DNA from: an uncultured Nitrososphaerales archaeon
GTDB taxonomy: Archaea; Thermoproteota; Nitrososphaeria; Nitrososphaerales; Nitrososphaeraceae
Direction: 5' to 3'
DNA: 64,000 bases
NCBI GenBank assembly: GCA_963695855.1
Contig: CAVOHZ010000010.1
Span: forward strand, 1,248,001 to 1,312,000
Shown: piece after piece, positions 1,648 to 61,398 of the stretch
Layout: each line of letters starts with the position of its first letter
Numbering within the stretch: the first letter of the stretch is position 1
Translations under genes and position numbers: made by a program
Notes under the pieces: model-generated
Told to the model about the DNA's origin: nothing
The model's input: the letters and a program-made list of their open reading frames with translations, nothing else
Database searches by the model: none

Positions 1648-1711
1648 AAGCCTTGATACCATACGGACTGGGGAGGATAGTCAACTGATTTTGAAACAAT
1701 TTTGTAGTTCA
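1648..1711 (+). repeat. tRNA-3'-end-derived att-like repeat, type A
   Basis: GCCTTGATACCATACGGACTGGGGAGGATAGTCAACTGATTTTGAAACAATTTTGTAGTTCA matches copies at 8465, 18608, 35516, 61333. Confidence 0.75.
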
Positions 1712-1829
1712 CGGAAAGTCGAAAATAATCTAAAGAACAGTCATTATCACATCTCATAAATGTCAACTAGGCGTTTAATATTATCTACTTTAGTACTACT
1801 GAAATATCAGGTTTGACAAAAAATGCTAG

Positions 1830-2747
1830 ATGATGTCATTTAAAAAAATTTTTCAGATGAGTAGAAAAAATCGAGAAATTTTAGTTTCTGCTTTTACTGC
1901 TGTATCTGTTGGAATTATTATCTATCAACTTGTTTATAATCCTACTAAATCAACAGAAATTATTATTTATTTGTTTGATCTGATAGTGACTGCTATTCTA
2001 ATTACAGATTTTTACTTGAGAATGAAAGAAGCAAAAGGAAGCAAACGCATTTTCATTCTCAAACATTTGTATGAGATTCCAGCGCTAATTCCGTTACTAA
2101 TTTTTGGAATATTTGAAAGCTATTCATATCTCAATATAATTTTCAGATTGTTAAGACTTATCCGTTTATTTAGGATCATGCATCTTTTTTCGCGAATTTT
2201 AATTTTTTCAGCTCAAACGAATAATCGTTTTCTCTATATTGTTTCAGTGTCAGGTCTGGCTGTAAGTGGTGGGGCAATTGGTTTATTTCTAGTTGAGGGC
2301 AATGTCCCAGAAAGCAAGGTAACAAATTTAGGAGATGCTTTTTGGTGGGCAATAGTAACTGTTACCACAGTAGGGTATGGAGATATTTACCCTGTTACTA
2401 CTGAAGGAAAAATCATAGCTAGCATTTTGATGATTGTTGGAATCGGTATTTTAGGAGTATTAATTTCTACACTTGGTGCGAGTTTTATAGAATCTAGACT
2501 TAAACCTAAAATAACCATAGAGGAAGAATCTAAAAAAGCAATAAATGAAAAAATTTGCAAACTGGAATCATTAAATAAAGATGAATATTCCTCCTTGATT
2601 TTATCAATTAGCAAACTTTATAATGATTTAAGATCAAAACCTAAAAGTAAAAATAATAATAATTCCAGTTGTATAAAATGCAATAATATCTATCCTGCAG
2701 ATTCTAGATTCTGTAATAAATGTGGATGCTCACTACAAAATAATTAA
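1830..2747 (+). CDS. Voltage-gated-type potassium channel with C-terminal zinc ribbon
   Basis: TTVGYGD selectivity filter; S4-like RLLRLIRLFR; C-terminal CxxC..CxxC. Confidence 0.92.
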   Translation: MMSFKKIFQMSRKNREILVSAFTAVSVGIIIYQLVYNPTKSTEIIIYLFDLIVTAILITDFYLRMKEAKGSKRIFILKHLYEIPALIPLLIFGIFESYSYLNIIFRLLRLIRLFRIMHLFSRILIFSAQTNNRFLYIVSVSGLAVSGGAIGLFLVEGNVPESKVTNLGDAFWWAIVTVTTVGYGDIYPVTTEGKIIASILMIVGIGILGVLISTLGASFIESRLKPKITIEEESKKAINEKICKLESLNKDEYSSLILSISKLYNDLRSKPKSKNNNNSSCIKCNNIYPADSRFCNKCGCSLQNN

Positions 2748-2786
2748 ATTTGCGTCGTAATAGTCAAACGAAAATCGAAACGTATG

Positions 2787-2840
2787 GTAATAATGTAGTT
2801 TCTGATGATTCAACTATCTTCAATACAATTTTGTAGTTCT
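2787..2840 (+). repeat. Degenerate type A att-like repeat
   Basis: TCAACTATCTTCAATACAATTTTGTAGTTC resembles the type A right arm. Confidence 0.5.
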
Positions 2841-3069
2841 ATTATATTTTATAATATGTTGAACAGAAATTTACGTTTAAAAAATGAAACAATATCATAA
2901 AATGTTTTATTTCTATGGAAAAACTCTTCCAGAATTGATAAAGTAAACAAGTTTACTAAACAATACAGTGATGGAAATACCTCTGATGTATCAATAATGG
3001 CAGTATTAGATAAACAAATAGAAATTCAAAAAAATTTTTCGTTTGGGTATTAGCGAAACAAGAAAATTA

Positions 3070-3565
3070 TCAAAATTTGGGTCTTATTATTTCATACACA
3101 TGATCAATATGTTTAAAGGATTTCATTCTTTCATTTGTACGAATATATAATTTATTAGTATCAAATTTGTCCATAATTAATTCATTAAGTTCCACTGAAA
3201 TAATGATATGGTTATCATTGGCATAACCCTCAAGTCTACTACATAAGTTAACGTTCTTTCCCATTGCTGTAATTTGTACTCTTGAAGGAGATTTCCAATA
3301 ACCAAAAACAACATCTCCTACATGAATAGCACATTTTAAATCAATATTAGTGCGTGGATTAAAACCAAAATAATTATTCCATAGTTTAAGATGCCTGTTT
3401 TTTATGTCATCAAATATTTTCCTTAATTCTATGGCAGCCACAATTGTTCTGCAAGGAACATCATCAAATTTTGTATCTTTAATACCAAAGTAAGCAAAGA
3501 TTCCATCGCCTATAAATTTATCCAAAATTCCATTATTATTGGTGATGATTTGTGACCCTGTATGA
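3070..3565 (-). pseudogene. Class III adenylate/guanylate cyclase, 5'-truncated at a MITE
   Basis: DKFIGDG, AIHVGDV and GKNVNLCSRLE motifs; the N-terminus in the ORF track lies inside MITE 3566-3693. Confidence 0.8.
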
Positions 3566-3693
3566 GGTCCTATTAAGTTAAGGAAAATAGATGGATAGAA
3601 TTGAAAAAACTTGTAAAAGTGAGCACACAACAGCACAGAACATAATAGAATTATATAATATTACTATTACTTTACTCTTAAGTTAACAGGGCC
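3566..3693. mobile_element. IS6-derived MITE (128 bp)
   Basis: TIRs GGTCCTATTAAGTTAAG / CTTAAGTTAACAGGGCC; interior homologous to the reverse complement of 17658-17776; no TSD visible. Confidence 0.75.
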
Positions 3694-3702
3694 AAAAATA
3701 AT

Positions 3703-4935
3703 CTATATCGTACTCTGATTTTCCTTAATAGTATATGTTCTGTCCTTCCAATTAACAGTGTGTTTATATCCAGAATTAATTATGGATGTAAAAAATGCAA
3801 TAAATACAAAAGTACACGCTAATGGAAAGGCTATCGAATAGAAGATATTTTGAACCATTAAATATTTTAAATGCAAAATACTTGTCATTATCAACAATAA
3901 AATTGATGTTATGGCTAAAGATAGCAAAACTAGATTTAGGTTGGTCATATAATCTGTTATATGTTCTTGCTGTAACACAGTGATCATAATTGAAAATGGC
4001 AATACAATTAGAGGTAGTAATAACAAAAGAAATGTTGCAATCACCATCAAATACGCCTTTATTTTTTCTCTTTTGTATATGGAAATCATTAATCTTGTAA
4101 GTCCATGCCAAAGAGTAGAAGGGTTTCTTGCCCATAAAGCCTCTATGTGGTCTTTGCCATTAACTACTTTAAGTTTAAAGCCTTTCTCTTTTACTTTTCT
4201 TCCTAGCGCACCATCTTCTACAATTTCATCCTTTACTGCTTTATGAGTACCTATTGCCTCATAGGTTTTTCGTGTTATTATAAAAAAACTTCCAAAGAGG
4301 TATCCTATCTTGCTATTGGGATTATTTGCTTTTAGCGCGGAGTATCTAGCCAAAGAAAGAGTCCAAAGTATAGGTAGAGTAATCTTTGTCCAAAAATCAG
4401 TTGCCAATATTTTGGGCATTGCGGTAAGAGCATCAAGTTCTTCAGACAAAAAATGATTCACAGCTAAAGAGATAGAGGTTAAAGAATGTATAGTATCGGC
4501 ATCAGTAAAAAGAAAGAGATCGCCTGTTGATTTAAGATATCCCTGATGGCAAGCCCAATTCTTTCCTGTCCAGTAATCAGGCTTTGGTTCTGCATTAACA
4601 TACACAACTCTAGAATTTGTTGTGCTATAATTCTTAATTATTTCAGCTGTTCTATCAGATGAAGAATCATTAATTACAACTATTTCATAATTGGAATAAT
4701 CTTGATCAATTAAACTTTCTAGACATTTCTCTATGTATTTTTCCTCGTTTCTTGCAGGAACAATTATGCTCACCTTGGGAAGAACAATGTTTTTTTTAGA
4801 TGATGTGAAAGAATGTAGTTTTGGTACCTCTATTAGAGATTTTATAGTACAAACAAGAAAGTATACCCATGAAAAGAAAACACTAGAAATAATAGCAACT
4901 AACGTTATTAATAAAGCAAAATTATATTCGACCAA
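3703..4935 (-). CDS. Glycosyltransferase family 2, membrane-bound
   Basis: VSIIVPARNEE, NDSSSDRT, FTDAD and EDGALG motifs; TM segments at both ends. Confidence 0.92.
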   Translation of the reverse strand: MVEYNFALLITLVAIISSVFFSWVYFLVCTIKSLIEVPKLHSFTSSKKNIVLPKVSIIVPARNEEKYIEKCLESLIDQDYSNYEIVVINDSSSDRTAEIIKNYSTTNSRVVYVNAEPKPDYWTGKNWACHQGYLKSTGDLFLFTDADTIHSLTSISLAVNHFLSEELDALTAMPKILATDFWTKITLPILWTLSLARYSALKANNPNSKIGYLFGSFFIITRKTYEAIGTHKAVKDEIVEDGALGRKVKEKGFKLKVVNGKDHIEALWARNPSTLWHGLTRLMISIYKREKIKAYLMVIATFLLLLLPLIVLPFSIMITVLQQEHITDYMTNLNLVLLSLAITSILLLIMTSILHLKYLMVQNIFYSIAFPLACTFVFIAFFTSIINSGYKHTVNWKDRTYTIKENQSTI

Positions 4936-5059
4936 TTATATAAAGAAACCTTTCTTTTTATATATAAATAATATTTATATTGTTTTATGCCTACAATATC
5001 TATAAATACATCGAAATTTATGAGAATACCTAAACAATCTAATACCTTTCCTATTTTGC

Positions 5060-5107
5060 TATATTTTGGTATCGGAGGGTTAGAGTATGACACGTAATTG
5101 GGATCTG
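5060..5107 (+). repeat. att-like repeat, type B
   Basis: GGTATCGGAGGGTTAGAGTATGACACGTAATTGGGATC matches 17205 and 39139. Confidence 0.7.
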
Positions 5108-5436
5108 TCTTTTACAAATTTAAATTTTTATATTGTTAAACTTTTAGTATAATTAAAAATTATTTTTTATATGCTTTACGATAGATATGGGAAGGTAAAA
5201 ATAAATCTTATTGTTATTTTGAGAAAACTATTCATCCATGTTGTTCTTTTGTTGTCTACCCGTTAAATAGAATATTATTACGATCACATAAATACAAGCA
5301 TAGAGTATTGACCACTATAGATGTTTTGCTAAATTAACTGACATGGATAATTAACAATATATTCATAAATTTGAAAAAAGAAAGATAATATCATTTATAG
5401 ATGAATTGTTTTATTGGATAAGGATGATAAGTTGTC

Positions 5437-6411
5437 TTAAAAAAAACTGCCTAGTCTAGTTAAAGTATTCTCATTAAATAAGTTAAGCTCTTTATTATAT
5501 ACGCATTTATTTAATTCATTTCCATCGCTGTTACAACTTTGAATAAGTAGTAAAATTCTTTTATTCTGGAAAATATCATAAGGAAGAAAAGTGATTTGAC
5601 TTTCTTTTCCATTGAATTTTTCTAAAATACTTCCTGATTTACCCTCCAATCCAAACTTAACCGATGTAAGATTTGAAAACTGCTCTTTTTTCTCATGGAG
5701 TTTTTTTGAGATTGAAGTCTCATTTTTATTAGAGTCTCCAATCTTTACTCCATTTTTGTCAATTATTACCAATCTGGTATTATTTTGTATATTAATAGAC
5801 TGAAGAAATTGGTCATAATTGTTAAAATTAATAGTTCCAAACAGTATTCCTATCATATCCTTTTCTTTTATTACTGGAGTAGCAATTACTGCCAGATTTC
5901 TTCCTGTCGCTTTAGAAATAATTGCATCGCTCAAGTAAGTTTTTTTAGTCTGTTCAACTACTTGATAATAATCTCTAAATGCAAGATTGTTTGTAGTTAG
6001 ATTTAATTGACGTTCAAATGGCTCATCAAAATACACCTCTCCGTTATTTAATAAAAATACAATTGATGAAAATTCGTTAAATTGATCCAAAAGTATTTTA
6101 GCTATTTTTCTCTTCTCAATATCTGCATCTTCTGGTATGCCATTGATTTTTGAATCTACCAAATTTTTATCAGGAGGCTGTAAAATTTGTGGTAGACTGC
6201 TAGCAATTTGTAGAGCTGTAGCTAGTTTTGTTACCTTACTCTCAAGTATTGTTTTTATATTTTTGAGTTCATTTAAAAGTGAGGAATTATTTTCGTTCGC
6301 TTTATAATAGTATTGAGTATCTTGAGCATACACACAGATGGATAGGTTTGCAGAAAATACAATAATACTGATAGTAATAATACCAAATAAAAGATCTAAA
6401 ATCTTTGACAT
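5437..6411 (-). CDS. Secreted or membrane-anchored Cache (dCache) domain protein
   Basis: Signal-like N-terminus; FRDYYQ, YLSDAIISKATG and VIATPV Cache motifs. Confidence 0.85.
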   Translation of the reverse strand: MSKILDLLFGIITISIIVFSANLSICVYAQDTQYYYKANENNSSLLNELKNIKTILESKVTKLATALQIASSLPQILQPPDKNLVDSKINGIPEDADIEKRKIAKILLDQFNEFSSIVFLLNNGEVYFDEPFERQLNLTTNNLAFRDYYQVVEQTKKTYLSDAIISKATGRNLAVIATPVIKEKDMIGILFGTINFNNYDQFLQSINIQNNTRLVIIDKNGVKIGDSNKNETSISKKLHEKKEQFSNLTSVKFGLEGKSGSILEKFNGKESQITFLPYDIFQNKRILLLIQSCNSDGNELNKCVYNKELNLFNENTLTRLGSFF

Positions 6412-6631
6412 TATTTAATCTTTAAAATTTCAATAATCATTCAATATAATCCTATCTATGATCTCGCATTTCCTTTCTCATCCATTACTGCAATCTGTAA
6501 GTAGTTCTTATGGAGATCCATTCCCACATACATCATACTACTGTTAGAGCATAACTTACTGTCTGATTTGTATTTACTGGACTTGTTCACATATAGTTAG
6601 CTCTTTCCTTAAGTTAACAGCACCCATTAAA

Positions 6632-7681
6632 TTATAATTTTTGCGGAGTAGTAATCAGCTTTCCGAATAATTGTGACTCCATCATTTTTATGTGACCCAT
6701 TACCATCTCTTCAAAAGGATAAACTGTGTCTATTATTGCTTTTATTTTTCCTTTACTTGTCCATTTAATTACCTCTTCTAATCCTGCACGTGTTCCTTGG
6801 GTAGCTCCGATAAGATTTAGTCCCTTAAAGAAGAGATATCTCAAGTCTAATTTTGAATCATATCCTGTTGTGGCTCCTGTAGATACTAAGGTACCTCCCA
6901 TATTTAAGAGACTAACTTCTTGTGGAAATACAGATTTTCCTATATGTTCAAAAATAATATCTACACCTTGATTATTTGTTAAGCTTCTAACTTTCTTGTA
7001 CCAATCAGGCTCTCTATGATTTACAACATGATGAGCACCTAATTCAAGGCATTTACTCATTTTTTCTTCCGTACCAGCTGTTGCAATAACATCACAATTG
7101 AACAGCTTTGCAATTTGAATACCTGCTATTCCCATACCACTTCCACCTCCCATAATCAAAACAGTTTGCCCTGGTTGAATATTAGCTCTAGTAACTAACA
7201 TGTGCCAGGCTGTCATTCCAACCATAGAATTAGCCGCTGCATCTTGAAAAGAAAGATTATCTGGGATTTTTATAACGTTGACTTCTGGTAAATATGTATA
7301 TTGAGCAAACCCTCCCCATAAAGGACCAGTTTGAAAACCCCATACTTGTCTATGACGACAATCATATTCTTTGCCTGAAGTACAGTCCTTACATATTCTA
7401 CAGGTTAGATTGGGATGTCCTACTATTCGGTCTCCTTTTTTTATATCTAAAATATTTTCTCCAATATCTGCTACTGTTCCAGAAACATCACTTCCAGAAA
7501 TGTGAGGAAGAGGAATCTTAATTGGTTCTCCCCATATTCCCCAAAGATCATCATAATTATAAGAAGCTGCTTCAACTTTTATAAGAACTTGATTATGCTT
7601 GATTTTCGGAATTTCTATCTCTTCTATTTTTACAACTTTTCTTGGATCCTTATTATGCTCACGATATACAGCTGCCTTCAT
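6632..7681 (-). CDS. Zinc-binding dehydrogenase/reductase (MDR family)
   Basis: PHISGSDVSG; structural Zn CxxCxxC...C; GGGSGMG nucleotide-binding loop. Confidence 0.9.
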   Translation of the reverse strand: MKAAVYREHNKDPRKVVKIEEIEIPKIKHNQVLIKVEAASYNYDDLWGIWGEPIKIPLPHISGSDVSGTVADIGENILDIKKGDRIVGHPNLTCRICKDCTSGKEYDCRHRQVWGFQTGPLWGGFAQYTYLPEVNVIKIPDNLSFQDAAANSMVGMTAWHMLVTRANIQPGQTVLIMGGGSGMGIAGIQIAKLFNCDVIATAGTEEKMSKCLELGAHHVVNHREPDWYKKVRSLTNNQGVDIIFEHIGKSVFPQEVSLLNMGGTLVSTGATTGYDSKLDLRYLFFKGLNLIGATQGTRAGLEEVIKWTSKGKIKAIIDTVYPFEEMVMGHIKMMESQLFGKLITTPQKL

Positions 7682-8464
7682 GTCACTATAAAAAATACAA
7701 TATGGAATTTAAAGAATAGGTTTACAAAGTATTGTAAAAAAAATATATAAACAGAAAGTAGTAATAGCAATATTATAGAAATAAAAAGCAGTTAACTTAA
7801 CTTCCAATTCTCTCTCTCAAAGTATCTCTCAAATTAATAAATAAAATTTTGTATATATGATAATGCCTAATCTTGATCAATGGATCAATCAAAGTAGTAA
7901 AAATGAAGAACTGACGACGACAACAAACAAATTCAAAAATTGTTTGCTAACTATTAGAGCTGAACATCAAACGAGGATACGATCTAATATACATCCTACC
8001 GATAATGCATATCGTGAAAAAATTGTGGAGTTGATAAATTGAACTCTCGAAACATATAGAGCAGCCAATATACATAAGGTCCAACAGAATGAACAAATAA
8101 TAATAGATAATTTTATAGATGAACTTCACAAAAAAGAGATATAACTATAAACAAAAAGAATAGATATCTACTAAAAGATGAAGTCTTGATGTATAGACAA
8201 GAAGAAGATACTCTTGATTATATTCTATTTATAATCCATGACATGACTGATAAATTTTAGTATTAAAATAGAGATTTTGTTTACATTTTAAAGAAAACAA
8301 AGTACTTGTAAAATAAAACTTCTGGAATTCTACCAAAATATTTGCATTGTTCCTATTTGATAATCTGTGAATCTTTTCTACTGTATATCTTTTCTACTGT
8401 ATATTTTAACTTCGTTGCTATTTCTATGAACTACTCATTTCTTCTACTACATTGTCATCCAAAA

Positions 8465-8532
8465 TATATTAACGCAATTGGTTACTTGGCTCTGAGGATA
8501 GTCAATTGTTTTTGACACAGTATTGTAGTTCA
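8465..8532 (+). repeat. att-like repeat, type A
   Basis: GGCTCTGAGGATAGTCAATTGTTTTTGACACAGTATTGTAGTTCA. Confidence 0.7.
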
Positions 8533-8595
8533 TTTTCTACAGTTTTTATAAAATAATTTTATCTTCAATTCTTATTGATGAAAAAATGTTAAAAA

Positions 8596-9555
8596 TTAAT
8601 CCTCAAGAAATGTATTTATCACTTTACTTAATCTTTCGGGGTATTGAAACATCAACGCATGACCACCATCCTTGAATTGTGCTAGCCATGCTCCTGGAAT
8701 TTTCTCTATAAGTATCATAGAATTAGCAGATGATAAGACAAGATCATTAGTTCCTGTTACGACAAGAGTATCTTGTGATATATCTTTTAATTGATCACAT
8801 ATTCCTTCAAACGAGAAAATTGCGTCTGTTTGTCTTTTAAGAATCTCAGTAGGTGGCAACTCAAGTGAGGCAAATTTTTCCAAGTAATCAGCATTTTGTT
8901 TTATCCAATCTGGAGTAAATAGTAGAGGGATAATTCGTTTCTTTATATCGTCAGCAGAAGCAGATTGATTTGTCACTTGATTAAAAATGTCGGGATTTGG
9001 TGGAGTTGATTGATTTCCACCACAATAAGAAGCATATATTATTAAATCATCAACTTTGCTTGGATAGTTTAATGCTAATTTCTGGGCAATCATTCCACCC
9101 ATTGAATATCCCAAGATGTCAGATTTGTTAATCTTAAGAGCATCTAGCAATCCTTTACTATCATTTGCAAATTGATCAATTGAGAAATTTTTAGATCCTA
9201 CAGTAGGGTTACCAATACCACGGTTATCAAAGACTATGACTGTATGATTTGCAGATAATCCTTTCAAAAAAATAGGATCCCAGTCATTCATAGATCCTGC
9301 ATATCCCATTATTAGTAAAATTGGATCTCCTTTGCCAAAGATTTTATATGAAATATCTATATCTCCAACTTCAACTTGTTTGGATAGATTATTATCTAAT
9401 TTGCTTATGTTACTATCATTGTCTGAATTTATAATTTGACCATAAATTAAAACTGGATGATAGTAATTACCAATCATTACCAAACTAATAGTAGTGGTTA
9501 CAGCAATAATTACTACAATATTGAATTGCGAAATCATTACCATTATTATCTCCAT
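8596..9555 (-). CDS. Alpha/beta hydrolase with N-terminal membrane anchor
   Basis: GYSMGG nucleophile elbow; FDNRGIG; GGH catalytic His. Confidence 0.9.
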   Translation of the reverse strand: MEIIMVMISQFNIVVIIAVTTTISLVMIGNYYHPVLIYGQIINSDNDSNISKLDNNLSKQVEVGDIDISYKIFGKGDPILLIMGYAGSMNDWDPIFLKGLSANHTVIVFDNRGIGNPTVGSKNFSIDQFANDSKGLLDALKINKSDILGYSMGGMIAQKLALNYPSKVDDLIIYASYCGGNQSTPPNPDIFNQVTNQSASADDIKKRIIPLLFTPDWIKQNADYLEKFASLELPPTEILKRQTDAIFSFEGICDQLKDISQDTLVVTGTNDLVLSSANSMILIEKIPGAWLAQFKDGGHALMFQYPERLSKVINTFLED

Positions 9556-9947
9556 CCTCCTCGTTTTTTAATGGAAGTACGTGATTCGTCTAGTGTTTCA
9601 AAAACTTCTACGTTGTTATTCGGAAAAGAGAATTTTACGTTTGCTGAATGTGATGTATAAGGTCCACAAAAAATACCACTAACCTGTCCTTTCGAACGGT
9701 GAATTTCATATCCGCGAAATTTTGTAGTATCTTCGCGAACCTTGGTACATAATATCCTTTGCCCTTCAACATATGTTAGATTTTTATCCAAGCAAATGGT
9801 CCAATATGTTGCCATTTCTGGAATCTCAATATCTTTATCTTTAAAGTTTGCTTCTATTAGAGAATGTTCTAAATTGTATTCATCTGGATTTAAGATTCTA
9901 GAACCTGTAAGTTTACTTTTTCCTTCACATAAGAAGTTACCTAACAT
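9546..9947 (-). pseudogene. Hypothetical protein, possibly a degenerate relative of 19948-20490
   Basis: Similar spacing of the ATYW..EGQ.IL and FETLDE.. segments; weak. Confidence 0.4.
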
Positions 9948-10154
9948 CCTTAGTCGTTAATTTATTTAATTGCCTCATCTTTATAAAATATATAGTTTGC
10001 AATCTTTTGTTTTCTAACACATTAGCAGAATCAGATTCAATATTTAATTCTTCATTAAAGATAACAGGAAAAAATCTAAAAAGTAAATTGTCAAGGAGAG
10101 TAGATGATCAAGAATCATTAATTAATCACAAAAATAATTTAGGACTAATCTATT

Positions 10155-10565
10155 TTAATTAAATTTATCGAGTAAAGGTGATTTACATGGTATGGAATAG
10201 TTCACATTTACTTCGGCCCCATTATCATCCTTCATATAATCATTATTTTTATCATCAAAAAAACTTATCACATAGTCATCAGAATAGATATCATCTGCTA
10301 TTACATAATCGTCAAAACCACCAGTATTATTTGTAGCAAAATAACCGTATGGATCAACAAATCCGGTTGAATTAATGAATTCCCAGTAAACGTTTCCATC
10401 TCTATTGAATCCATTTACTGTGAAATTTACTCTATGATCTGACAATTTTCCACATTCTGGAGAGACTTGAACGATTGGTTTAATAGCATAAATTGTGGTA
10501 TGTTCAGAAAGAGTATTTAATGCAAAGACAATTATTGTAATCAATGGAAAAAGCAAAAGTTTCAT
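10155..10565 (-). CDS. Secreted hypothetical protein
   Basis: 136-aa ORF with signal-peptide-like N-terminus. Confidence 0.7.
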   Translation of the reverse strand: MKLLLFPLITIIVFALNTLSEHTTIYAIKPIVQVSPECGKLSDHRVNFTVNGFNRDGNVYWEFINSTGFVDPYGYFATNNTGGFDDYVIADDIYSDDYVISFFDDKNNDYMKDDNGAEVNVNYSIPCKSPLLDKFN

Positions 10566-10729
10566 AGATTTTTCTGTGTATCGTCTATTTTAAATATTAC
10601 TATATGGTTTTAAAGAAAACAACCCATCATTTAAGAAAATGAAAAAGATATACATGGTAAAAATAGTCCTGTTCCTTTGGAACTTATCTCTTTAAAAAAA
10701 GAAAATTAAATTTTTTCGTTATCTAAAAC

Positions 10730-11396: not shown

Positions 11397-11406
11397 ATAA
11401 AAGCAT

Positions 11407-17204: not shown

Positions 17205-17243
17205 GATCAGAGGACTTCGAGTATGACATGTAATTGGGATCGG
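17205..17243 (+). repeat. att-like repeat, type B
   Basis: GAGGACTTCGAGTATGACATGTAATTGGGATCGG. Confidence 0.72.
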
Positions 17244-17657
17244 CACTCTCATATTTGGTCATTTAGTACCTCATTTGAAATCTTTACCATATATTTCTGA
17301 GAGAATTTTGAAATAAAGACAAAGGGAATCAATGGAATTTGAAATTGAACGCTTCTATAAAATGGGACCAGTTACTTTTTGAATAAATTACTGTTATTTA
17401 TCCTCTACTTTCGAATTTTTATTTCAAAATTTTTTAGTTTTCCAGGTCATATATAGAAATTGGAGGATACTTTTGATCTAGATCTTTAACTATTTTAGTC
17501 TTTTCTAGATTGGAGCATCATCAACAATACGTTTGATTGCTACAGTTGTTTTAGGCATTTCTTTAGTTCCTTGAGCTATTTCATCGGTCATACCTGCAGT
17601 ATTTCTATACTGTGTTTAAAATGAAGATATTGGTTGTTATTGTCTTTGTATTTTTAC

Positions 17658-18607: not shown

Positions 18608-18675
18608 ATGTATATGAACCCCGATATAATACTGGCTCGGAGAATAGTTAACTGTTTTGACAAATTTTGTAGTCA
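18608..18675 (+). repeat. att-like repeat, type A
   Basis: ATGTATATGAACCCCGATATAATACTGGCTCGGAGAATAGTTAACTGTTTTGACAAATTTTGTAGTCA. Confidence 0.85.
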
Positions 18676-18765
18676 ACAAAAATAAAATGATAGATAGCGA
18701 CCTAAATTTTAAGTTATAAAACATGAATCATAAATATATAAAATGAGTTAGTAATAATTACAAGG

Positions 18766-19362: not shown

Positions 19363-19393
19363 AATTCTCATTATAGCAGAGTTCGGTAACATA
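19363..19393 (+). repeat. att-like repeat, type C (right arm only)
   Basis: AATTCTCATTATAGCAGAGTTCGGTAACATA matches 34039-34068. Confidence 0.75.
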
Positions 19394-19947
19394 ATATAAT
19401 AATAAGTTTTTGATTATTCCATGAATTATTTATTAGTGATACAAATTTAAAATCAATTAAAAAAGTAAAAGATAACTTAGCAGATCCGTCTAATCTGTAT
19501 TTTCGTAGATATTGATATCTTTGACAGGAATGATATGGCATCATTGTGATTGTATTATTTAATCTAGTATGCTATAATTGTAATAAGATTCAATACTATA
19601 AATTTGTAGATTGCAGATAAAGACAAAGACAATAATAATATAATATAATCAGAAATAGGAACAAACAAAATAAAATTCTAAGAATATTCCAATTACTATT
19701 TCTTTAATAAATTCAATTTAAGTATTTTACACTTTGCACAATTATTACTACTATTTGATTTGCATTTACTAGAATTATTCATTTATAGTTAGATCTTTCG
19801 TCAAATTAACAAGACCCTAATTTTCTATGAGCACATATAATTTTCTAATTATCATGAATAATATTTTAGCTGTATTTGTAAGATGTTTATAGCATATAGA
19901 AGGATTTAAAAAATACTATAATAAACAACTAAAAAATTGAGTTAAAG

Positions 19948-33829: not shown

Positions 33830-34004
33830 CACCACAGAATTATCCTAGTTATAATAGTCTCAATATCACGTATTTCTCTTACGTGGTTTCTTTACAATTT
33901 AAATTGTAATAATTTCACAAAAATGATATTTTAGTAAGGAATTATATAATATTTTGAATTGTTGTGTTTTCTGTGAAGTACATACCAAATCATTTGATAT
34001 AGTA

Positions 34005-34068
34005 GAGCCTTGATATTATACGGTTCCGGAGGGCTTCGAATTCTCATTATAGCAGGGTTCGATAACAT
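34005..34068 (+). repeat. att-like repeat, type C
   Basis: GAGCCTTGATATTATACGGTTCCGGAGGGCTTCGAATTCTCATTATAGCAGGGTTCGATAACAT. Confidence 0.85.
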
Positions 34069-35240: not shown

Positions 35241-35409
35241 ACAAAGAATCCATCGTGGCATTGTAGGGAAAATTATTGAATTCATTTGTAAAACTCATTT
35301 GTGGAATTATTTCTCTTAAATTAGGAATACCTCGAGTTGGTTTTCCATTAATATTTTGATGAATGATTATTTTAAAGTAATCGTTATTATTGTTTAATAT
35401 TGCTGATGT

Positions 35410-35478
35410 TAGCTGTCTATTAACATCATTACTAATCTCTTCTACCTTTTTCAATACAGTTTCAAGTTTTTGAGGCAT
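35410..35478 (-). pseudogene. 5' stub MPQKLETVLKKVEEISNDVNRQL (putative integrase N-terminus) next to a type A repeat
   Basis: Repeated at 20588-20641 and, degenerately, near 61262-61305. Confidence 0.45.
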
Positions 35479-35515: not shown

Positions 35516-35586
35516 ATGTATATGAACCCCGATATTATACGGGCTCGGAGGTGTGTGAACTGATTTTGACACAATTTTGTAGTTCA
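35516..35586 (+). repeat. att-like repeat, type A
   Basis: ATGTATATGAACCCCGATATTATACGGGCTCGGAGGTGTGTGAACTGATTTTGACACAATTTTGTAGTTCA. Confidence 0.85.
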
Positions 35587-35829
35587 AAAGTATTTAAAAA
35601 AAATTTATAATATTATTGAATATTGCAATAGTCACCCATATTTTAATCTAAATCTAAAAAGATGGATAAAGTAAGTAAGCATTATCTCATTGAGAAATAA
35701 TATTTCTTTTCTAACAAAAAGTAAAATAATCAAAATATGTCATTAAACAAGATTACAGAAGAAAGGGAAAAAGAAAAAGGAGAAAGGGAAAAGGAATAGA
35801 TATGAAATTAAATTTTATAAAATAGTATT

Positions 35830-39138: not shown

Positions 39139-39181
39139 ACGGGCTCGGAAGGCTTCGAGTATGACATGCAGTTGGGATCGG
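39139..39181 (+). repeat. att-like repeat, type B
   Basis: ACGGGCTCGGAAGGCTTCGAGTATGACATGCAGTTGGGATCGG. Confidence 0.8.
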
Positions 39182-39203
39182 TTTTCTGTTATTTTATTTT
39201 ACT

Positions 39204-49149: not shown

Positions 49150-49178
49150 ATAAAAAAGGAGGTTGCTCCTTTGACATG

Positions 49179-53334: not shown

Positions 53335-53758
53335 TGCTATTCCCTTTAGATAATATTCTTTCCTTTGTTGATTCTACAAATCTTATTGAATCCTGCAGTA
53401 AACCGGCATTAGTTAATAATTCCATTTTAGTAGAATAACATTCTTTAATCAATGCTAATGATTGTAACTTGATTTTTATGTCACCTTCTTTTTCTGCCTT
53501 TTCTGATATTATCCATAATTGTTTATTAATTTCCTGTAATCCCTTCAAACAATTTTGATACTCATAAGGTAACGTTTTCTGTATATGGTTCTTTATGGTT
53601 TCTTCTGCTTCTATCTTCAACTGTGCAACGTCCCTGGATACTGCAGACTTGTCAATAGATAACATGCTTGCAATTTCAGACTGACAAAATCCCTTAATCA
53701 TTAATTCGTCAATTTTGTTTCTACGCCATTCTAACTGTTGTTTCCTAGAAGTTGTCAT
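53267..53758 (-). CDS. Putative terminase small subunit (HTH + coiled coil)
   Basis: QSEIASMLSIDKSAVSRDV HTH; directly upstream of and overlapping terL. Confidence 0.65.
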   Translation of the reverse strand: MTTSRKQQLEWRRNKIDELMIKGFCQSEIASMLSIDKSAVSRDVAQLKIEAEETIKNHIQKTLPYEYQNCLKGLQEINKQLWIISEKAEKEGDIKIKLQSLALIKECYSTKMELLTNAGLLQDSIRFVESTKERILSKGNSNGLEGFTETNRPGTTEPTNTIF

Positions 53759-54235
53759 TCTTAGATTTTCCTTTTCAATAATTATATGGTTTCATTACTT
53801 TTGTCTTTTTCTACTCTGGGAATCATGGGATTATTGTTAGATTTATAGATTTCTAGGAAAAAAATATTGAAAATCAATATCCTAAAAAGATAAGATATTA
53901 ACAAGTTAATAGGTTACAAGGCTTCTTCTGGGGACCTATACGAAAAATATCTTCCAGACTTTGAAAAGATGTTAAAATCGTTCAAGTGGATAGATTGAAA
54001 ATAATTAAAATGATTTTGAATTAAAATAAAAAAATAAAAAAATAAAAGCAAGAAATAACAGGTAAATAAAAATATCTAGAGAATTGAGTTTTGGACCAAG
54101 TTTATTTATTTTAAAGATTTACAAATGAATTATTGATAGAATATTTCATTATGAATATATATCATGTTATTACGATAGGAAAGAGATTGAGAAGAGTTAA
54201 TACGTGCCTCTTTCATTGGTATATTTTCTTTTGCT

Positions 54236-54877
54236 ATGATCTTTTCCTCTATTATGACATATACAGATGAACAAAAGGCATACGGACAATCTAGTAATTT
54301 TACTAAATTTACTTCAAAGGATTTAGAGACAGCAAAGGAGGCAGCAAAACAGGCAAAATTAAGAGAATTTATCTTGGAAATTCAAGGTGTTAGCACAAGT
54401 AATCCACAGGTTACACAATTCCAAATTTCTGGAGATGGTAACAAAATCTGTAGATCTGGCAATTGTAAATATGAATTTGGCACAATAAATATATCATTGC
54501 CAACTGTCGAAAATACTGGTCTTACTCTACGAATAGATTTTCAGTTATATGATCAACAATCACAAAAATGGGAACTATATAGCATGACCAGTCTTTCCGG
54601 TATAAATGAGACAGATATAAGTAATCTAATTTACACATTTAATGAACCTCTAGGATCTCTCAGGTTGCACCCTGCAGAAAGTGAAAATCCAATCGATCAA
54701 TCTCTTGATGAAGATGGATGGTTTAATTGGTGGAATGAAAATACTTGGTATTATGATACAGGACCTGTAGAGTATAGATCAGGTGAAGATCGCTTAATAA
54801 TGACCGGCACTTTCAATGGTCACGACGTCCCGACGTATGATAGTGATGATATACAGGTGATTAAATTATTTGATTAA
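54236..54877 (+). CDS. Hypothetical (probably secreted) protein
   Basis: 213-aa ORF with AYG signal-cleavage-like site. Confidence 0.65.
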   Translation: MIFSSIMTYTDEQKAYGQSSNFTKFTSKDLETAKEAAKQAKLREFILEIQGVSTSNPQVTQFQISGDGNKICRSGNCKYEFGTINISLPTVENTGLTLRIDFQLYDQQSQKWELYSMTSLSGINETDISNLIYTFNEPLGSLRLHPAESENPIDQSLDEDGWFNWWNENTWYYDTGPVEYRSGEDRLIMTGTFNGHDVPTYDSDDIQVIKLFD

Positions 54878-55035
54878 CTAATTCGTTTTTTAGAAAATAG
54901 AATTTTGTTATAATGTATAGCCCTTATAATTTTTATTGTCTTTATCTAGTCTGGGAATATCGACAGGATTATCATTAGTCAGACCTATGTCTTCCATTTC
55001 TTATGATATCTTTGATTGGAATTGTTGGATAAGTT

Positions 55036-56172
55036 TCAATCGTTGCCATTAATTGAAACCCCTATTCCTTTAATGACTAGCAAAGAGTACAAATTACTAT
55101 GATTGGTTTTTATCTTCTGTCTACTCATTGGACCGTACTCTTTGTTTTGTGCGTTTCTCAGTGCTTGATTAATTCTCTTATCGATATACCACCAACCGCC
55201 TAACTTCCTTAATGACTCACATTTCTGCAACCACTCTTTAATAATCTGTCTAACTTCGTTATCCGTTAACCCTTTTATCTTGACAAGATAAGGAACTAGA
55301 ATCAACTCAACAATTTCTTTTCTGCAGTCGTCAACCGGTGTTTCTAATAATCTCTCTATCCAGTTGTAATAATTATGGAAATTATTTCCAAAATTATTAT
55401 TATGATTTTTTCGTTTCCACTTTTCTAATTCCTTTATTTGTTTTTCCTGTTCTAACTCAAAGTCTATCTTCTTTTGTATCAGATATTCGTGAAACATGGT
55501 AAACAGTTCTTTTGTAATTGTAGGACGGTATCCGTTCCATTCCTGTATAATTTTCACTGTAACGTTATTTTTGGAATTAATAGAACCTGGAATCCTTAGA
55601 AGACATGATCTAAAAGACGGATTGTGGGACTTGTCTGCTTTATTGTCCGATAATAAAATTTTTGCAAATCTTAAAAATTCTTCTGCAGGATTACCATTTA
55701 CAATTAGTCTAGAATCTGCAAATTCCCTAAATCTCTGATTTATCAAATAGTCATTTACAGGACAGTTTACAGGTTGTATTACGTGATAACCATTACCGGA
55801 CCATAGGACGGTAGGTTTTGTGTTTTTACCAAAATATTTCGAAATATTTCTTAGTATGTGAGCTTTCGCAATATCTAACTCATTCTTTCTAGATTTGAAG
55901 TCCGATAAATCCAAGTCAATGAAAAACAAATCTGGAATCCAGGATTTACCGTCTCTCAATAATGGAAATGCGTTAATTCTACAATCTATGAACTTGGAAT
56001 CTAAAAATGCTATTATTATCTCGTCCATATTGTCAACTTGGAAAGTTCTGTTACTGGATTCGTATGTTGAGATTTTACGTGGAAATACAGGTTTTGAAAG
56101 GTGATTTAAAATAAAGTCTAAATCTTGGGATTCAGATAATTCCTTTCTTGAAATGGTTTCTAGGGTTGTCAT
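55036..56172 (-). CDS. Archaeo-eukaryotic primase fused to a PriX-like C-terminal domain
   Basis: FIDLD (motif I), SGNGYH (II), LRIPGSIN (III); C-terminal WIERLL.TPV.D.RK..V.LIL.PYL. Confidence 0.78.
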   Translation of the reverse strand: MTTLETISRKELSESQDLDFILNHLSKPVFPRKISTYESSNRTFQVDNMDEIIIAFLDSKFIDCRINAFPLLRDGKSWIPDLFFIDLDLSDFKSRKNELDIAKAHILRNISKYFGKNTKPTVLWSGNGYHVIQPVNCPVNDYLINQRFREFADSRLIVNGNPAEEFLRFAKILLSDNKADKSHNPSFRSCLLRIPGSINSKNNVTVKIIQEWNGYRPTITKELFTMFHEYLIQKKIDFELEQEKQIKELEKWKRKNHNNNFGNNFHNYYNWIERLLETPVDDCRKEIVELILVPYLVKIKGLTDNEVRQIIKEWLQKCESLRKLGGWWYIDKRINQALRNAQNKEYGPMSRQKIKTNHSNLYSLLVIKGIGVSINGND

Positions 56173-58193
56173 TCCCAGGGATTTCCTTTGAACTCTACTC
56201 GTTCACCATTTTGCTTCATGGTATTGATTAACGACTTGCTTGGTTGTGCTGGTTTTTTTGCATGAAAATTCAAACAGTGTTTTAGGTGTTCTTTTTCTGT
56301 CGAAAATTCATTATCGCAATAATTGCATTTGTATTGTTGGGGGAAGGTATGTAAAGTATCGTCAATATCGTCCAATCGTCCAGAGTCCTCATTTTGAGCG
56401 TGATTTTGACTGTTTTCTTTGGACGATACTTTGGACGATATATTTTCACTATTTTTAATATCGTCCATTTTTTCACCCTGATTTTGAGCGTGATTTTCCG
56501 TTTTTTGACGGTTTGACGATATTGACGGTATTATACATACTATTTCTATTACCCTTTTTCCTTTATTGTCCTTCTTTCCAATTTCAATCAGAAATCCGCG
56601 TTCTCTAAGATTTGTCTTTGCTTCATTTAATCTGCGTGTGAGTACGTTGGGTGCTTTGGGAAATGAAGTGACTTTGGAAATATTTATTTTTAAATCTCGT
56701 ACTGCAATGTCTTCAAGTCGTGTTAATAATTCGCTTGAAGTACCACTCCATTTTTCTTTATATTCTACTATGTTACCGTCTTCATCTTGTTTATCAATCA
56801 TAAATATGATAAGTGCTTGGGATACCGCACTTTCTGCAATTGCTTCCTCAATCTGGACGTTGATATTATCTTGGTAGACTCTGAGAAACTCACCTTCTTT
56901 ATTACCCAAACACTGTGAAATTATCTCTCCATATTCTTCAAAATCCGCCATTCGGTTAAGTCCCTTTTCAATCGTAATTCCCCCATTTTGTTTAACCTGG
57001 AGAACCTTCACCAGAATATTGAAAAGATATCCCAGTAGTTTGGGTCTCATGGCTTCAAATTCGTTCCAGATATCTTCTTGTTTTCTTCTATTTTCTTTGG
57101 GAATTCTTTCTAGTTTTATAATAATACTTCTATCTAATAGGTCGGGTTTTGTTGCTCCTATGTTGATACCGTTAATACCCACGCATCTTTTAAAGGAATA
57201 GATTATGTCGTCATCATCTGTATACAATTGTCTCTTTGAGAATCCACTACCGGTTACAGCCCTGCATAATGCGTCAGAAACCCAATCATTTATTTTTGAA
57301 ACATTATCAAAATATGCGATATAGTTGTGGGATAGTTTCTGAATAAGTTCGTTGATATCTCTAGGAAATGTTAGGGTTTTGACGCTACTAGGGTCTATTA
57401 ACATTCTTATCAGCTCCTGAAATGTAGATTTTGCACTCCCTTGTTCTCCGTATAGTAGATTGACTGGTTTAGAAATGTCGGGAATTAATAACGAAACAAT
57501 CTTTACCTTTACCAATAATTTTGTGTCCTCGTCCGCTATGTTCAGAAGACTAATAAATTTGTCTAGAAGTGGTTCGTCGTATTCCTCTGTCGGTAAAATA
57601 GGAGTAACCTGGGGTAATTGACTGCTAAAATGTCTAAACAGAATGGGAGGAGTTTTTTCTATTGTCCAACCTTGCGGAGTTATCTTTATTACGCTTCCAT
57701 CGTTATTTACCAAGTCATAATAGAACGTATACTTATCTTCGTCCGTCCTTGCTACTCTTAATTCCAGTCTTTTGATAATACCATTAAATTCTGCCTTTGA
57801 TTGCACATAGTCTATGATATTATTTTTTTCCTTTTCCTTGAGTACAATTTTATACTCACTGTCGTAAAATAATTTGAATATGTATCTTTCAAATTTGTGA
57901 CTTGTTAAAGATATTGGTTCGTAATGTCCATCCTTTATTTTCACACATCCAAATAGTTTACCGTACTGGTCTTTGAACAGTAACTTAATGTGAGTATCCG
58001 CATAAGCAAAAAGGATTTCTGTATTATTCTCTCCTTCGTCTTCTTCTTCTTCGTCTTCTTCTTCGTATTCTGCTGCTGATTGCGATTTTCCGTTTTGTTT
58101 GTTGTATTCTTTTAAAATTTCTAACTGGTTATCGTTAAGAAGTCTTCTGCATTGCAGCTTCGATTCATTATCATTTATCCCGTACTCGTTCAT
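56169..58193 (-). CDS. Replicative helicase-like P-loop ATPase with C-terminal C2H2 finger
   Basis: GEQGSAKS (Walker A), AYFDNV (Walker B), DLLDR; CNYC..H...H; ATGA overlap with the primase. Confidence 0.75.
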   Translation of the reverse strand: MNEYGINDNESKLQCRRLLNDNQLEILKEYNKQNGKSQSAAEYEEEDEEEEDEGENNTEILFAYADTHIKLLFKDQYGKLFGCVKIKDGHYEPISLTSHKFERYIFKLFYDSEYKIVLKEKEKNNIIDYVQSKAEFNGIIKRLELRVARTDEDKYTFYYDLVNNDGSVIKITPQGWTIEKTPPILFRHFSSQLPQVTPILPTEEYDEPLLDKFISLLNIADEDTKLLVKVKIVSLLIPDISKPVNLLYGEQGSAKSTFQELIRMLIDPSSVKTLTFPRDINELIQKLSHNYIAYFDNVSKINDWVSDALCRAVTGSGFSKRQLYTDDDDIIYSFKRCVGINGINIGATKPDLLDRSIIIKLERIPKENRRKQEDIWNEFEAMRPKLLGYLFNILVKVLQVKQNGGITIEKGLNRMADFEEYGEIISQCLGNKEGEFLRVYQDNINVQIEEAIAESAVSQALIIFMIDKQDEDGNIVEYKEKWSGTSSELLTRLEDIAVRDLKINISKVTSFPKAPNVLTRRLNEAKTNLRERGFLIEIGKKDNKGKRVIEIVCIIPSISSNRQKTENHAQNQGEKMDDIKNSENISSKVSSKENSQNHAQNEDSGRLDDIDDTLHTFPQQYKCNYCDNEFSTEKEHLKHCLNFHAKKPAQPSKSLINTMKQNGERVEFKGNPWE
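56357..56530. repeat. Iteron-like cluster (candidate replication origin)
   Basis: About 9 copies of GACG(A/G)T(A) in both orientations plus 17-bp ATTTTGAGCGTGATTTT at 56391 and 56481. Confidence 0.6.
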
Positions 58194-59509: not shown

Positions 59510-59708
59510 TTTGTTACTATTGATGGCATTGCAGATTTAATTGGTAGAGCCAAAAGAAGTTTTCAAATGGGCTAAAATTATTGCGGCAAGGTATATGGAT
59601 AATGATAAAGCAGAAGAGTATGGCAGGAGAAATAGTTCAGAAGGTGAACTATTAATAAAAATAACACCACCAGAGTTATTGGTGAAAAAGATATAGCAGT
59701 ATGGTAAC
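59510..59708 (+). pseudogene. PPOX-class F420-dependent oxidoreductase, 3' fragment
   Basis: FVTIDGIA..KWAKIIAARYM...AEEYGRRNSSEGELLIKITP. Confidence 0.65.
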
Positions 59709-59780
59709 CAATCAATTCAACTTTTCATAAATGAATTATTTATTTATAAAATATGGATTACAGGTTAAAAAATTATACAA

Positions 59781-59844
59781 GTCATTGGTACTATAAGGAT
59801 TATGAGGACTTCGAATTTCCATTATAACAAGGTTCAGTAACATA
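59781..59844 (+). repeat. att-like repeat, type C (degenerate)
   Basis: GAGGACTTCGAATTTCCATTATAACAAGGTTCAGTAACATA. Confidence 0.7.
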
Positions 59845-60184
59845 ATATATTAATTTAACTTTCAAAAATTATTTAATTAGGAAAGAGTAAAAATACTTGT
59901 ATTAACTGGTATAATTCTGAAGAAATTTAATAAATGGAAAAATTAATACATGTGACTTGGATCGTTATTTTCTATAAAATAAATAAAAGTATTGATTCAA
60001 AGGCAAACTGTCTAAATTTCAAGATTCACAAAAATATAAATTAAAATTTTTACTTTATCTTCTATTAGAATATTATTTAATTAGTAACTTTTATCAAAAG
60101 TTCTATGATAAGAAAGCAAGATAAGATTTCGTGTTAATATTTAGGAAATAATTTTAAATTCTAAATGATCTAAAAAAATTACCT

Positions 60185-60500
60185 TTGAATAATAAATCTT
60201 TTGTGATAATTCATGGTTTACTCTTGATTAGTATACTATCTTTGTATGATGTCAGTGCACAAAATAATTCTAATTTTATAATTGATAACGAAGTTAAGCC
60301 TAGAGTAGATGTATGGATAGTTGGAACCTCTGCTGACGATAAGATAAGATGAGGCGAAGGCGACTATGAAATGTCTGGTAAATATGGTGATGATATTTTA
60401 AGCCGAGGCAAAGGAAACGATGAACTTGATGGAGGTTCTGGAGTTGATCAGCTTGATGGAGGCAAAGGAAAAGACCTGTCCACACAATCTGAAACGTTTC
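60185..60500 (+). pseudogene. RTX calcium-binding protein remnant
   Basis: GTSADD, GKGNDELDGGSGVDQLDGGKG with stops and frameshifts. Confidence 0.55.
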
Positions 60501-60532
60501 TAATGAAAGAAGATTAAATTGTTATAATTGAC

Positions 60533-61258
60533 TTATTTCTTCCCTAAATTTATAGTCTCATTGTCTATTGGAGCTAACTTGAACAGTTCCTGGTCATTTT
60601 GCTTATAATCTGATCTTTCTTTTATTACCAATTCACAATCTGATTCAGAGATATCACCCTGAGTTGTATTCAAATTAACTACTACATCCATCCCATCTCC
60701 ACATTGAAAAATATCCTTGCCATTACCGCCAACAAGCAGATCATTTCCATTTTCTCCAAAAAACTTGTTTACATCCTTTGAATTTGTAGAAGCAAAATCT
60801 CTAAGCCAGTCATCCCCTTCACCTCCATAAAATTCATCATTGCCTCTGTAACCCACCAATATGTCGTCATTTAAACCACCAATTAAAACATCTTTTCCAT
60901 ATCTAGTTTCATTAAAAACCTCACTTGAAATATCGCCAACAATTGTATCTGCTCCCTCTCCTCCAAAAATAACATCATCCCCTCCCATTCCACGCAAATA
61001 ATCTGAGCCTGTCCATCCATATATTATATTGTTATTATTATTTCCAGTAATCTCATCATCGGTTTCATCCCCAGTGCAGATCAGCACACTCTTATCACAC
61101 CAATATTTTATTCCTTGTACTTCTTTGAAGAAATAAACTCCAGTTGGAACAACTACCAAAATTGATATTATAATTACTGATATTACCTTCATCTTGATTA
61201 TCATTACTCTTGGATTTTCCCACAAATAAATAAACCGTTCGTTTATTGAAAGTATCAT
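60533..61258 (-). CDS. Hemolysin-type (RTX) calcium-binding protein
   Basis: GGxGxD repeats; N-terminal TM. Confidence 0.88.
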   Translation of the reverse strand: MILSINERFIYLWENPRVMIIKMKVISVIIISILVVVPTGVYFFKEVQGIKYWCDKSVLICTGDETDDEITGNNNNNIIYGWTGSDYLRGMGGDDVIFGGEGADTIVGDISSEVFNETRYGKDVLIGGLNDDILVGYRGNDEFYGGEGDDWLRDFASTNSKDVNKFFGENGNDLLVGGNGKDIFQCGDGMDVVVNLNTTQGDISESDCELVIKERSDYKQNDQELFKLAPIDNETINLGKK

Positions 61259-61332
61259 TTCTTTTTTTAGTACAGGTTCAGTTCTTGGGATATTTAGATA
61301 TCTCTCATTCTTGGATTCTTATAAAATACTTC

Positions 61333-61398
61333 TATGTGAACCCCAATATAATACGGGCTCAGAATAGTCAACTGTTTTTGACACAATTTTGTAGTTCA
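61333..61398 (+). repeat. att-like repeat, type A
   Basis: TATGTGAACCCCAATATAATACGGGCTCAGAATAGTCAACTGTTTTTGACACAATTTTGTAGTTCA. Confidence 0.85.

Follow-up and report, generated by a model that had tools for sequence, protein, structure and literature searches.

The question raised by this locus is what could have left twelve co-oriented sites, most of them carrying a piece of a tRNA 3' end, in a single 64,000-nt stretch of archaeal DNA. The stretch, referred to here as the window, spans positions 1248001-1312000 of contig C10 in the genome of an uncultured Nitrososphaerales archaeon (the source genome, G000; 3.55 Mb in 11 contigs). Ammonia-oxidising archaea are key soil nitrifiers, and the route by which they take up accessory genes is poorly understood. 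A preliminary description, made from the letters of the window, proposed that repeated tandem integration at one tRNA gene had built an integron-like cassette array, or that the sites still shuffle blocks of DNA. An array built by repeated integration is the best reading, as the host tRNA, the clustering of the sites and the breakpoints all agree with it: DNA units have probably been integrated one after another at the 3' end of the tRNA-Arg(TCG) gene and have then been reassorted between species at the attachment (att) junctions.

The core of the junctions derives from this tRNA. The only tRNA-Arg(TCG) gene of the source genome lies on the plus strand at C10:1147352-1147426 and ends in ...ATCGAAGCCCTCCGAGCCCG; its last 19 nt are exactly the junction core, from which tRNA-Arg(TCT) differs by one base, and its last 12-19 nt recur at junctions over 210 kb. 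Within the window these 19 nt are matched at 18 positions at site 39139, over 12 of 12 nt at site 35516 and over 9-13 nt at eight more sites, with no match at 19363 or 2787. The expectation that the reverse complement of the repeated sequence reads as a tRNA 3' end, and that a host tRNA would match it, was therefore borne out. Its placing was wrong: the gene had been predicted on the minus strand to the right of the window and is found approximately 100 kb to the left, on the plus strand, and no tRNA gene was found within the window itself.

Read on the minus strand, a complete junction consists of a conserved element-end arm (A, approximately 33 nt; B, approximately 60 nt; or C, approximately 45 nt), the tRNA-derived core and a variable second arm. 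The consensus of the first arm reaches at least 90% over most positions in 81 copies of A, 21 of B and 24 of C. The second arm is of kind X, Y1, Y2, Y3 or Z, or often nothing recognisable, and X is the same sequence that follows the intact tRNA-Arg(TCG). In the window, Y1 is present at 18608, 35516 and 61333, Y3 at 1648 and 34005 and an X-like arm at 8465, with no recognisable second arm after the core at 5060, 17205, 39139 and 59781. The amount of core retained differs with the first arm, being CCTCCGAGCCCG or less (12 nt) at A junctions and up to TCGAAGCCCTCCGAGCCCG (up to 19 nt) at B and C junctions; after A arms, the sequence common to all partner arms is only about CCTCCG. The shared left module of the preliminary description thus contains the tRNA core but is not one module, being that core together with at least three arms. 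Many tRNA-targeting integrases cross over in the T-loop; such a crossover would be plausible for junctions of types B and C, whereas what type A shares is limited to CCTCC onward.

All twelve sites are present, at the positions by which they are named here or up to about 25 nt away (Table 1). Profiles built from many copies recovered 11 of the 12 with nhmmer (E 1e-16 to 3e-06), all on one strand, and the same search of the window returned no site beyond these twelve. The remaining one, 2787, had been classed as type A: approximately 15 nt of the A arm remain there, without any tRNA part and below the profile threshold. At 19363 the left module was said to be absent, and indeed only the C arm is left, both the core and the second arm having gone. 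Searches with simple patterns gave fewer matches, against none expected from shuffled sequence in each case: four for right module A at up to three mismatches (18608 and 2787 fall outside this limit), three of three sites for B, two of three for C, and only two (18616 and 35524) for the full 28-nt left module at up to three mismatches.

An intact integrase element stands at the head of the array. Beginning 58 nt past tRNA-Arg(TCG) is an intact tyrosine recombinase gene of 436 residues (C10:1147485-1148795), which matches the phrog_1 integrase family at 4.5e-14 and scores 26.3 bits with Pfam Phage_integrase, just below the cut-off of 27.1. It is followed by an open reading frame (ORF) of 154 residues, a SIR2-like protein, and then a C arm with an exact copy of the last 19 nt of the tRNA, so that the 4.6-kb unit after the tRNA is a complete integrated element with attL and attR in perfect 19-nt repeats. 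Remnants of such integrases also follow the second arms elsewhere: fragments lie directly after X arms at C10:1327188 and C10:1328854 (tblastn, source genome), and stubs comprising the first 12-190 codons come after Y1 arms, both within the window and among relatives, with a possible degraded integrase start at approximately 61262-61300, after junction 61333. An integrase after tRNA-Arg is also found in G003 and G010, and is not found there in G012 and G016. In integration of the SSV type the attachment site lies within the integrase gene, which is split on insertion; this was considered for the head element and rejected, since the integrase is whole and its start codon lies 58 nt beyond the end of the core. 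Exact-match searches of viral contigs, which have limited reach, gave no match to the A-arm 22-mer, none to the C-arm pattern and, by single-protein patterns, no relative of the integrase, so that no free viral or plasmid form was recovered in this way.

The junctions are clustered and co-oriented. Profile searches of the source genome gave 42 matches, with 32 in C10:1,152,008-1,361,892, two in contig C7 and eight elsewhere; leaving out C7 as a duplicate, 32 of 40 fall in 5.9% of the genome, approximately 210 kb by tRNA-Arg(TCG) (binomial P=2e-32), and the window forms the middle of this region. For spacing, orientation, arms, units and flanks, the source region was analysed together with 20 contigs of relatives that had been chosen because they hold several A matches and are not a random sample. 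Across this set neighbouring junctions face the same way in 131 of 133 pairs, at a median spacing of 2206 nt (interquartile range 1.2-3.3 kb), and one 151-kb contig of a close relative (G035) holds 33 junctions in a single orientation. The copies are therefore neither scattered through the genome nor randomly oriented, either of which would have told against the preliminary description. Contig C7 (10,052 bp) is unplaced, with insertion sequence (IS) copies at its bounds; it matches C10:1151998-1156400 at 100% identity beginning at the 5' edge of a C arm, and upstream of that edge it carries a different unit. Either the duplication or junction exchange behind this is very recent, or two subpopulations are present.

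The array is also genus-wide. With up to two mismatches allowed, the A arm occurs in 16 of the 18 other species genomes of the genus, in 1-44 copies each, and in none of 12 genomes from other genera, a reversed-pattern control giving no match in any of them. The exact A-arm 22-mer was found in 110 stretches among 185,579 species genomes; among the 80 listed of these 110, 79 are labelled Nitrososphaeraceae or Nitrososphaerales. The remaining one of these 80 is a 483-kb contig labelled beta proteobacterium (L110; G037:C23:1-60000), in which 11 co-oriented junctions occupy an end of approximately 20 kb at 26-35% G+C while the rest has 60-68% G+C; this contig, with its archaeal-type array end, is most likely a chimeric assembly.

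The units between junctions behave as independent pieces. Those of up to 4.5 kb hold none, one, two, or three or more ORFs of at least 90 residues in 12, 57, 29 and 16 cases respectively. Genes from window positions 1-20000, among them those for ADH, a dCache protein, GT2, DJ-1 and a nitroreductase, are found singly in most of 24 other genomes, often on other contigs and in other orders. In contig C32 of G014, the dCache unit with its B arm (junction 5060) is joined to the block that follows junction 17205 in the window, and the overlap is the B module. In contig C11 of the same genome, junction 61333 is joined directly to the GT2 unit of window positions 3694-5108, and junction 39139 occurs with the transcription factor B (TFB) gene at 96% identity and unrelated DNA on its other side. 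In G035, other DNA lies to the right of junction 18608, beginning where the A arm ends. The cargo is kept working, as seven of seven ADH copies of equal length have no internal stop and their differences are biased to third codon positions.

Comparison of junction flanks between genomes places the exchange at the junctions themselves, as the preliminary description anticipated. Junctions of different genomes were compared in pairs, provided that one or both of the 300-nt flanks were homologous: both were homologous in 13 pairs and only one in 90 (42 left, 48 right), whereas at control points 500-900 nt inside units both flanks were homologous in 22-34 and only one in 5-8 (Fisher p=2e-13 against one of six shifts, with 26 two-sided and 5 one-sided). 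In 40 of the 42 left-only pairs, left homology extends to a point no more than 30 nt from the arm. These pairs share the type of first arm, here the P arm, in 41 of 42 cases and the type of second arm, P', in 1 of 30, while right-only pairs share P' in 21 of 31 and P in 31 of 48. This pattern of sharing shows that the P arm travels with the upstream unit and the P' arm with the downstream one, and that the switch lies between the two arms, in the core. A three-way alignment confines the crossover to the B arm and core, approximately 35 nt, and an ungapped change-point scan places it between +3 and +19 of the core in 11 of 15 left-only pairs; in 16 of 26 right-only pairs the scan ran to the limit of its own range owing to indels. 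Counted over all rearrangements, 6 of 19 breakpoints fall at recognised modules, which make up 3.1% of bases. Exchange at the junctions has occurred between species. The rpoB region is 97-98% identical to that of the source genome in two relatives and 80-82% identical in 19 others, several of which hold window units at 88-96% identity; adjacent units on one relative's contig range from 82 to 96%. Such mosaic identities suggest exchange after the species split, with the caveat that most of these relatives are metagenome bins with short array contigs.

These observations are probably best explained by the following sequence of events. A circular unit would carry a P arm (A, B or C), the tRNA-copied core and a P' arm (X, Y1, Y2, Y3, Z or another), and a tyrosine integrase would swap strands within the core; every insertion would rebuild the tRNA, and at the junction left behind the core would be flanked by the P arm of one unit and the P' arm of the one that follows. 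Units starting with X or Y1 would have borne an integrase gene directly after that arm and would tend to end in a C arm, whereas most other units would have one or two cargo genes, no integrase and mostly an A arm at their end. Among the units analysed, a C end is found in 9 of 13 that start with Y1, compared with 14 of 118 that start otherwise, which fits a family of integrase-bearing elements, and A-ending units are mostly without a trace of integrase. The integrase genes would later have decayed into short stubs. The junctions would have stayed exchange points at which units were lost, gained and re-ordered, which would explain why the same units now occupy different neighbourhoods in related species.

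Several observations weigh against serial integration followed by exchange at the junctions. Only five junctions, the four nearest to the tRNA and one at 1,361,847, face as the tRNA does, and 28 of the 33 in the array (1,176,666 to 1,358,996, with all sites of the window) face away from it, which requires a later inversion; approximately 185 kb of the array, the whole window included, does seem to have been inverted relative to the tRNA, an event that would have followed the formation of the array. The orientation flips between C10 positions 1169924 and 1176666 and again between 1358996 and 1361847. A 12-nt tRNA core could not be recognised beside 38 of the 80 A arms of relatives; some of these have Z-type partners and others may be eroded. 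An intact tRNA was seen at the head of an array only in the source genome, and no A, B or C arm was found downstream of tRNA-Arg over 13 kb (G003), 4.6 kb (G010), 50 kb (G012) or 7.6 kb (G016). An integrase of the tRNA-adjacent family (E<=1e-40) was recovered from only 14 of 24 other genomes; it was not found in the array-bearing G001, G002, G004, G008, G009, G011, G034 and G035, and G014 and G005 hold integrase fragments or pseudogenes only. Across genomes no link between the presence of the integrase and the size of the array was apparent. In units of up to 4.5 kb the ORFs run with the sites in 90 cases and against them in 79. The contigs of relatives are mostly short and from metagenome bins, where binning errors could inflate the apparent sharing between species. 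Lastly, the arms form repeats of 35-60 nt, and homologous recombination between them could give the same reassortment.

This last point leads to the most serious alternative, namely that the junctions are relics: old scars of integration whose later re-ordering is due to homologous recombination, with the 35-60 nt arms and the IS copies as its substrates and with no integrase acting. The want of an intact integrase in so many array-bearing genomes is what such relics would show, as are the large inversion and the missing or eroded core beside many A arms. Crossovers inside the arm may also occur, as the subtype of the A-arm 3' end is tied to the upstream unit in 13 of 19 cases and to the downstream unit in 14 of 19, and 13 of the 19 rearrangement breakpoints lie away from recognised junctions, several of them being IS insertions or plain deletions. 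Nevertheless, relics alone are unlikely for three reasons: first, junctions with different types of arm have no more than 6-19 nt in common, and nevertheless every class of P' arm is adjoined by units with A, B or C ends. Second, the arms are far better conserved than nearby non-coding DNA across species with 80% rpoB identity, which is not expected of neutral relics. Third, the element at the head of the array retains its intact integrase and perfect 19-nt repeats. These comparisons suggest that an integrase acting in trans, and not homologous recombination between the arms, carries out the exchange, which may still be going on.

There is a precedent for units that lack an integrase of their own. 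In the cis-mobilisable elements of Streptococcus, att-flanked units without an integrase persist beside a complete element and can be moved by its integrase. Accretion in Streptococcus is bacterial and involves two or three units; the array described here differs in having dozens of units and several classes of arm. A further possibility, which is put forward tentatively and with rather more doubt than conviction, is that these soil ammonia-oxidisers possess, as a genus, a functioning counterpart of the integron, in which single-gene units without a recombinase are excised and inserted again in trans by tRNA-Arg integrases through three classes of arm and a core of 6-12 nt. The array, up to 6% of the genome, would then be the main interspecies pool of accessory genes, with the units at 88-96% identity in genomes of about 80% rpoB identity as the evidence of exchange.

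It could also be supposed that the A, B and C arms are kept for gene expression or DNA organisation, as regulator-binding sites, terminators or promoters, and that the tRNA pieces are secondary. The A arm is more conserved than the adjoining tRNA core, the Y arms contain a TATA-like stretch that is followed by a conserved leader and start codon, and many arrays persist without an integrase, as this explanation would have it. It is nevertheless very improbable, given that genes are found running both with and against the arms, that arm type follows the upstream unit and that homology breaks at the border between arm and core, as the ends of mobile units do. Furthermore, no Rfam family matched in the window at the gathering threshold, and the DNA of four junctions, folded on both strands, gave z values of -0.4 to -2.4, weak at best, with no common hairpin. 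A classical integron, with an IntI-type integrase, folded attC hairpins and an attI site, is suggested by the co-oriented, closely spaced sites with mostly one or two genes between them, but is ruled out, since the integrase is not IntI (the tRNA-adjacent integrase has no match to the integron-integrase model TIGR02249, and the other integrase of the window scores 25.7 bits against a cut-off of 265), no hairpin is shared, the ORFs are not co-oriented and the sites are tRNA-derived composites.

Among the systems described in the sources cited here, the closest is the tycheposon island of Prochlorococcus. There too, elements with tyrosine recombinases insert serially beside a tRNA gene and displace earlier arrivals inward, the island is strewn with broken integrases and partial tRNAs, a complete element is lacking in most cases, and the cargo is metabolic or defensive (10.1101/2020.12.28.424599). 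The array differs in its archaeal host and in its extent, with a single tRNA seeding approximately 210 kb and at least 32 junctions, and in having three conserved arms and one core throughout a genus, most units being of one or two genes without a replication or integration module. Excision of tycheposons was demonstrated by polymerase chain reaction (10.1101/2020.12.28.424599), whereas the array is known from sequence alone. Integrons have been reported in archaeal metagenome bins (10.1101/2022.02.06.479319). The array resembles them in that co-oriented sites separate small, independently assorting units, in that a conserved site moves with the end of each unit, and in that, in the source genome, a recombinase and primary site stand at the head; it is unlike them in its non-IntI integrase, the absence of attC hairpins, its tRNA primary site, the free orientation of its genes and its larger units (median spacing 2.2 kb).

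Within the same phylum, a survey of integrated elements of Thaumarchaeota assigned 39 of the 68 elements that it mapped to tRNA genes, where all but one occupy the 3' end, with short att sites of median 17 bp (Krupovic et al. 2019, PMC6563490). That survey mentions in general terms that tyrosine-recombinase elements are known to form arrays when one site is used repeatedly, and covers single or double elements; its main text describes no multi-unit array with shared arms and contains no occurrence of 'Nitrosocosmicus', while its supplementary tables might list related sites (PMC6563490). Genomic islands flanked by integrases receive a general mention elsewhere (PMC13245735). A search of the literature apart from supplementary files found no description of the array in this genus.

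Table 1. Junctions and related remnants in the window (positions are those of the window).
Feature	Position	Strand	Evidence
Junction: A arm, eroded tRNA-Arg core (CCTCCCCAGTCCG), Y3 arm	1641..1714	-	nhmmer E=5e-12
Eroded A arm only (~15 nt), without core and second arm	2787..2845	-	sequence; below profile threshold
Junction: B arm and core (12 of the last 19 nt of the tRNA), second arm unrecognisable	5072..5110	-	nhmmer E=3e-09
Junction: A arm, core (CCTCAGAGCC), X-like arm	8465..8535	-	nhmmer E=5e-08
Junction: B arm and core (12/19), second arm unrecognisable	17207..17246	-	nhmmer E=5e-13; recombinant partner in G014:C32
Junction: A arm, 9-nt core, Y1 arm (24/24)	18608..18679	-	nhmmer E=3e-06
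C arm alone, core and second arm missing	19363..19403	-	nhmmer E=1e-06
Junction: C arm, core (13/19, TCGAAGCCCTCCG), Y3 arm	33997..34068	-	nhmmer E=1e-14
Integrase gene-start remnant (MPQKLETVLKKVEEISNDVNRQL...), 37 nt after Y1 arm	35401..35478	-	translation; compare start of intact integrase, MPTKLANILKKVNALANRKNATL
Best-preserved junction: A arm, exact 12-nt core CCTCCGAGCCCG, Y1 arm	35516..35589	-	nhmmer E=1e-16
Junction: B arm and core (18/19 of the tRNA 3' end), second arm unrecognisable	39140..39184	-	nhmmer E=1e-11
Junction: C arm and core (10/19), second arm unrecognisable	59804..59843	-	nhmmer E=7e-11
Junction: A arm, 10-nt core, Y1 arm (17/24)	61333..61401	-	nhmmer E=4e-12

A second family of tRNA-derived scars is also present. 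Copies at window positions 28937-28982, 32338-32383 and 33784-33829, with a weaker one at 1431-1476, read on the minus strand as T-loop, T-stem and acceptor end (TCGAGTCCCACTCCCGGCG), the first three being within the 14.6-kb gap between junctions 19363 and 34005. The genome holds 14 matches at up to three mismatches, and at three places (C2:4437, C10:1773057 and C10:1794999) an exact copy adjoins a distantly related integrase gene. None of the intact tRNAs is an exact match, tRNA-Ser(GCT) being the nearest with two mismatches. Distant from the main array, a solitary A arm on contig C3 of the source genome (C3:471018-471170) lies approximately 85 nt from a tRNA-Ser-like 3' end, which has two mismatches to this second core family.

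The window as a whole has a G+C content of 30% and its proteins are archaeal, examples being TFB (39204-40205) and a primase of the PriX type (55036-56172). An alternative genetic code was considered as the cause of the low coding density and rejected, as translation with table 4 yielded no longer ORFs. The block at 43710-58193 carries a different tyrosine integrase at 43710-45119 (+), a terminase large-subunit homologue at 51886-53334 (-; phrog_2, 7.5e-24) and the PriX-type primase at 55036-58193 (-); no exact repeat longer than 13 nt, as a candidate att repeat, was found between the flanks of this integrase-terminase-primase element (43.7-58.2 kb). Three copies of an IS240-type transposase gene fragment, 65-94% alike, lie at 1-464, 10943-11402 and 38545-38867, further repeated gene fragments at 645-944, 20651-20857 and 63366-63665, and an 87-nt perfect tandem duplication at 48000-48173, within the ORF at 47747-48259. 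At the right edge, a 4.2-kb segment (window positions 61767-64000 and beyond; C10:1309767-1313997) is absent from G035 and G005. In each of these comparisons its flanks show a 17-nt overlap, which points to an insertion that is accompanied by a short direct repeat and is unrelated to the tRNA-Arg junctions.

In summary, approximately 6% of one genome is an array at a single insertion site, and the same units recur in different orders across the genus, which makes the region a site of gene capture and gene shuffling. Its cargo includes dehydrogenases, a glycosyltransferase, sensor domains, a TFB paralogue and defence-type genes. The growth of genomic islands at tRNA genes, described in marine cyanobacteria, is thereby extended to archaea at a much larger scale. 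If the junctions are active, the tRNA-Arg end, the three types of arm and the matching integrase would constitute a natural, sequence-defined docking system; were this the case, it could explain the niche adaptation of the group and might provide a genetic tool for archaea that now have none.

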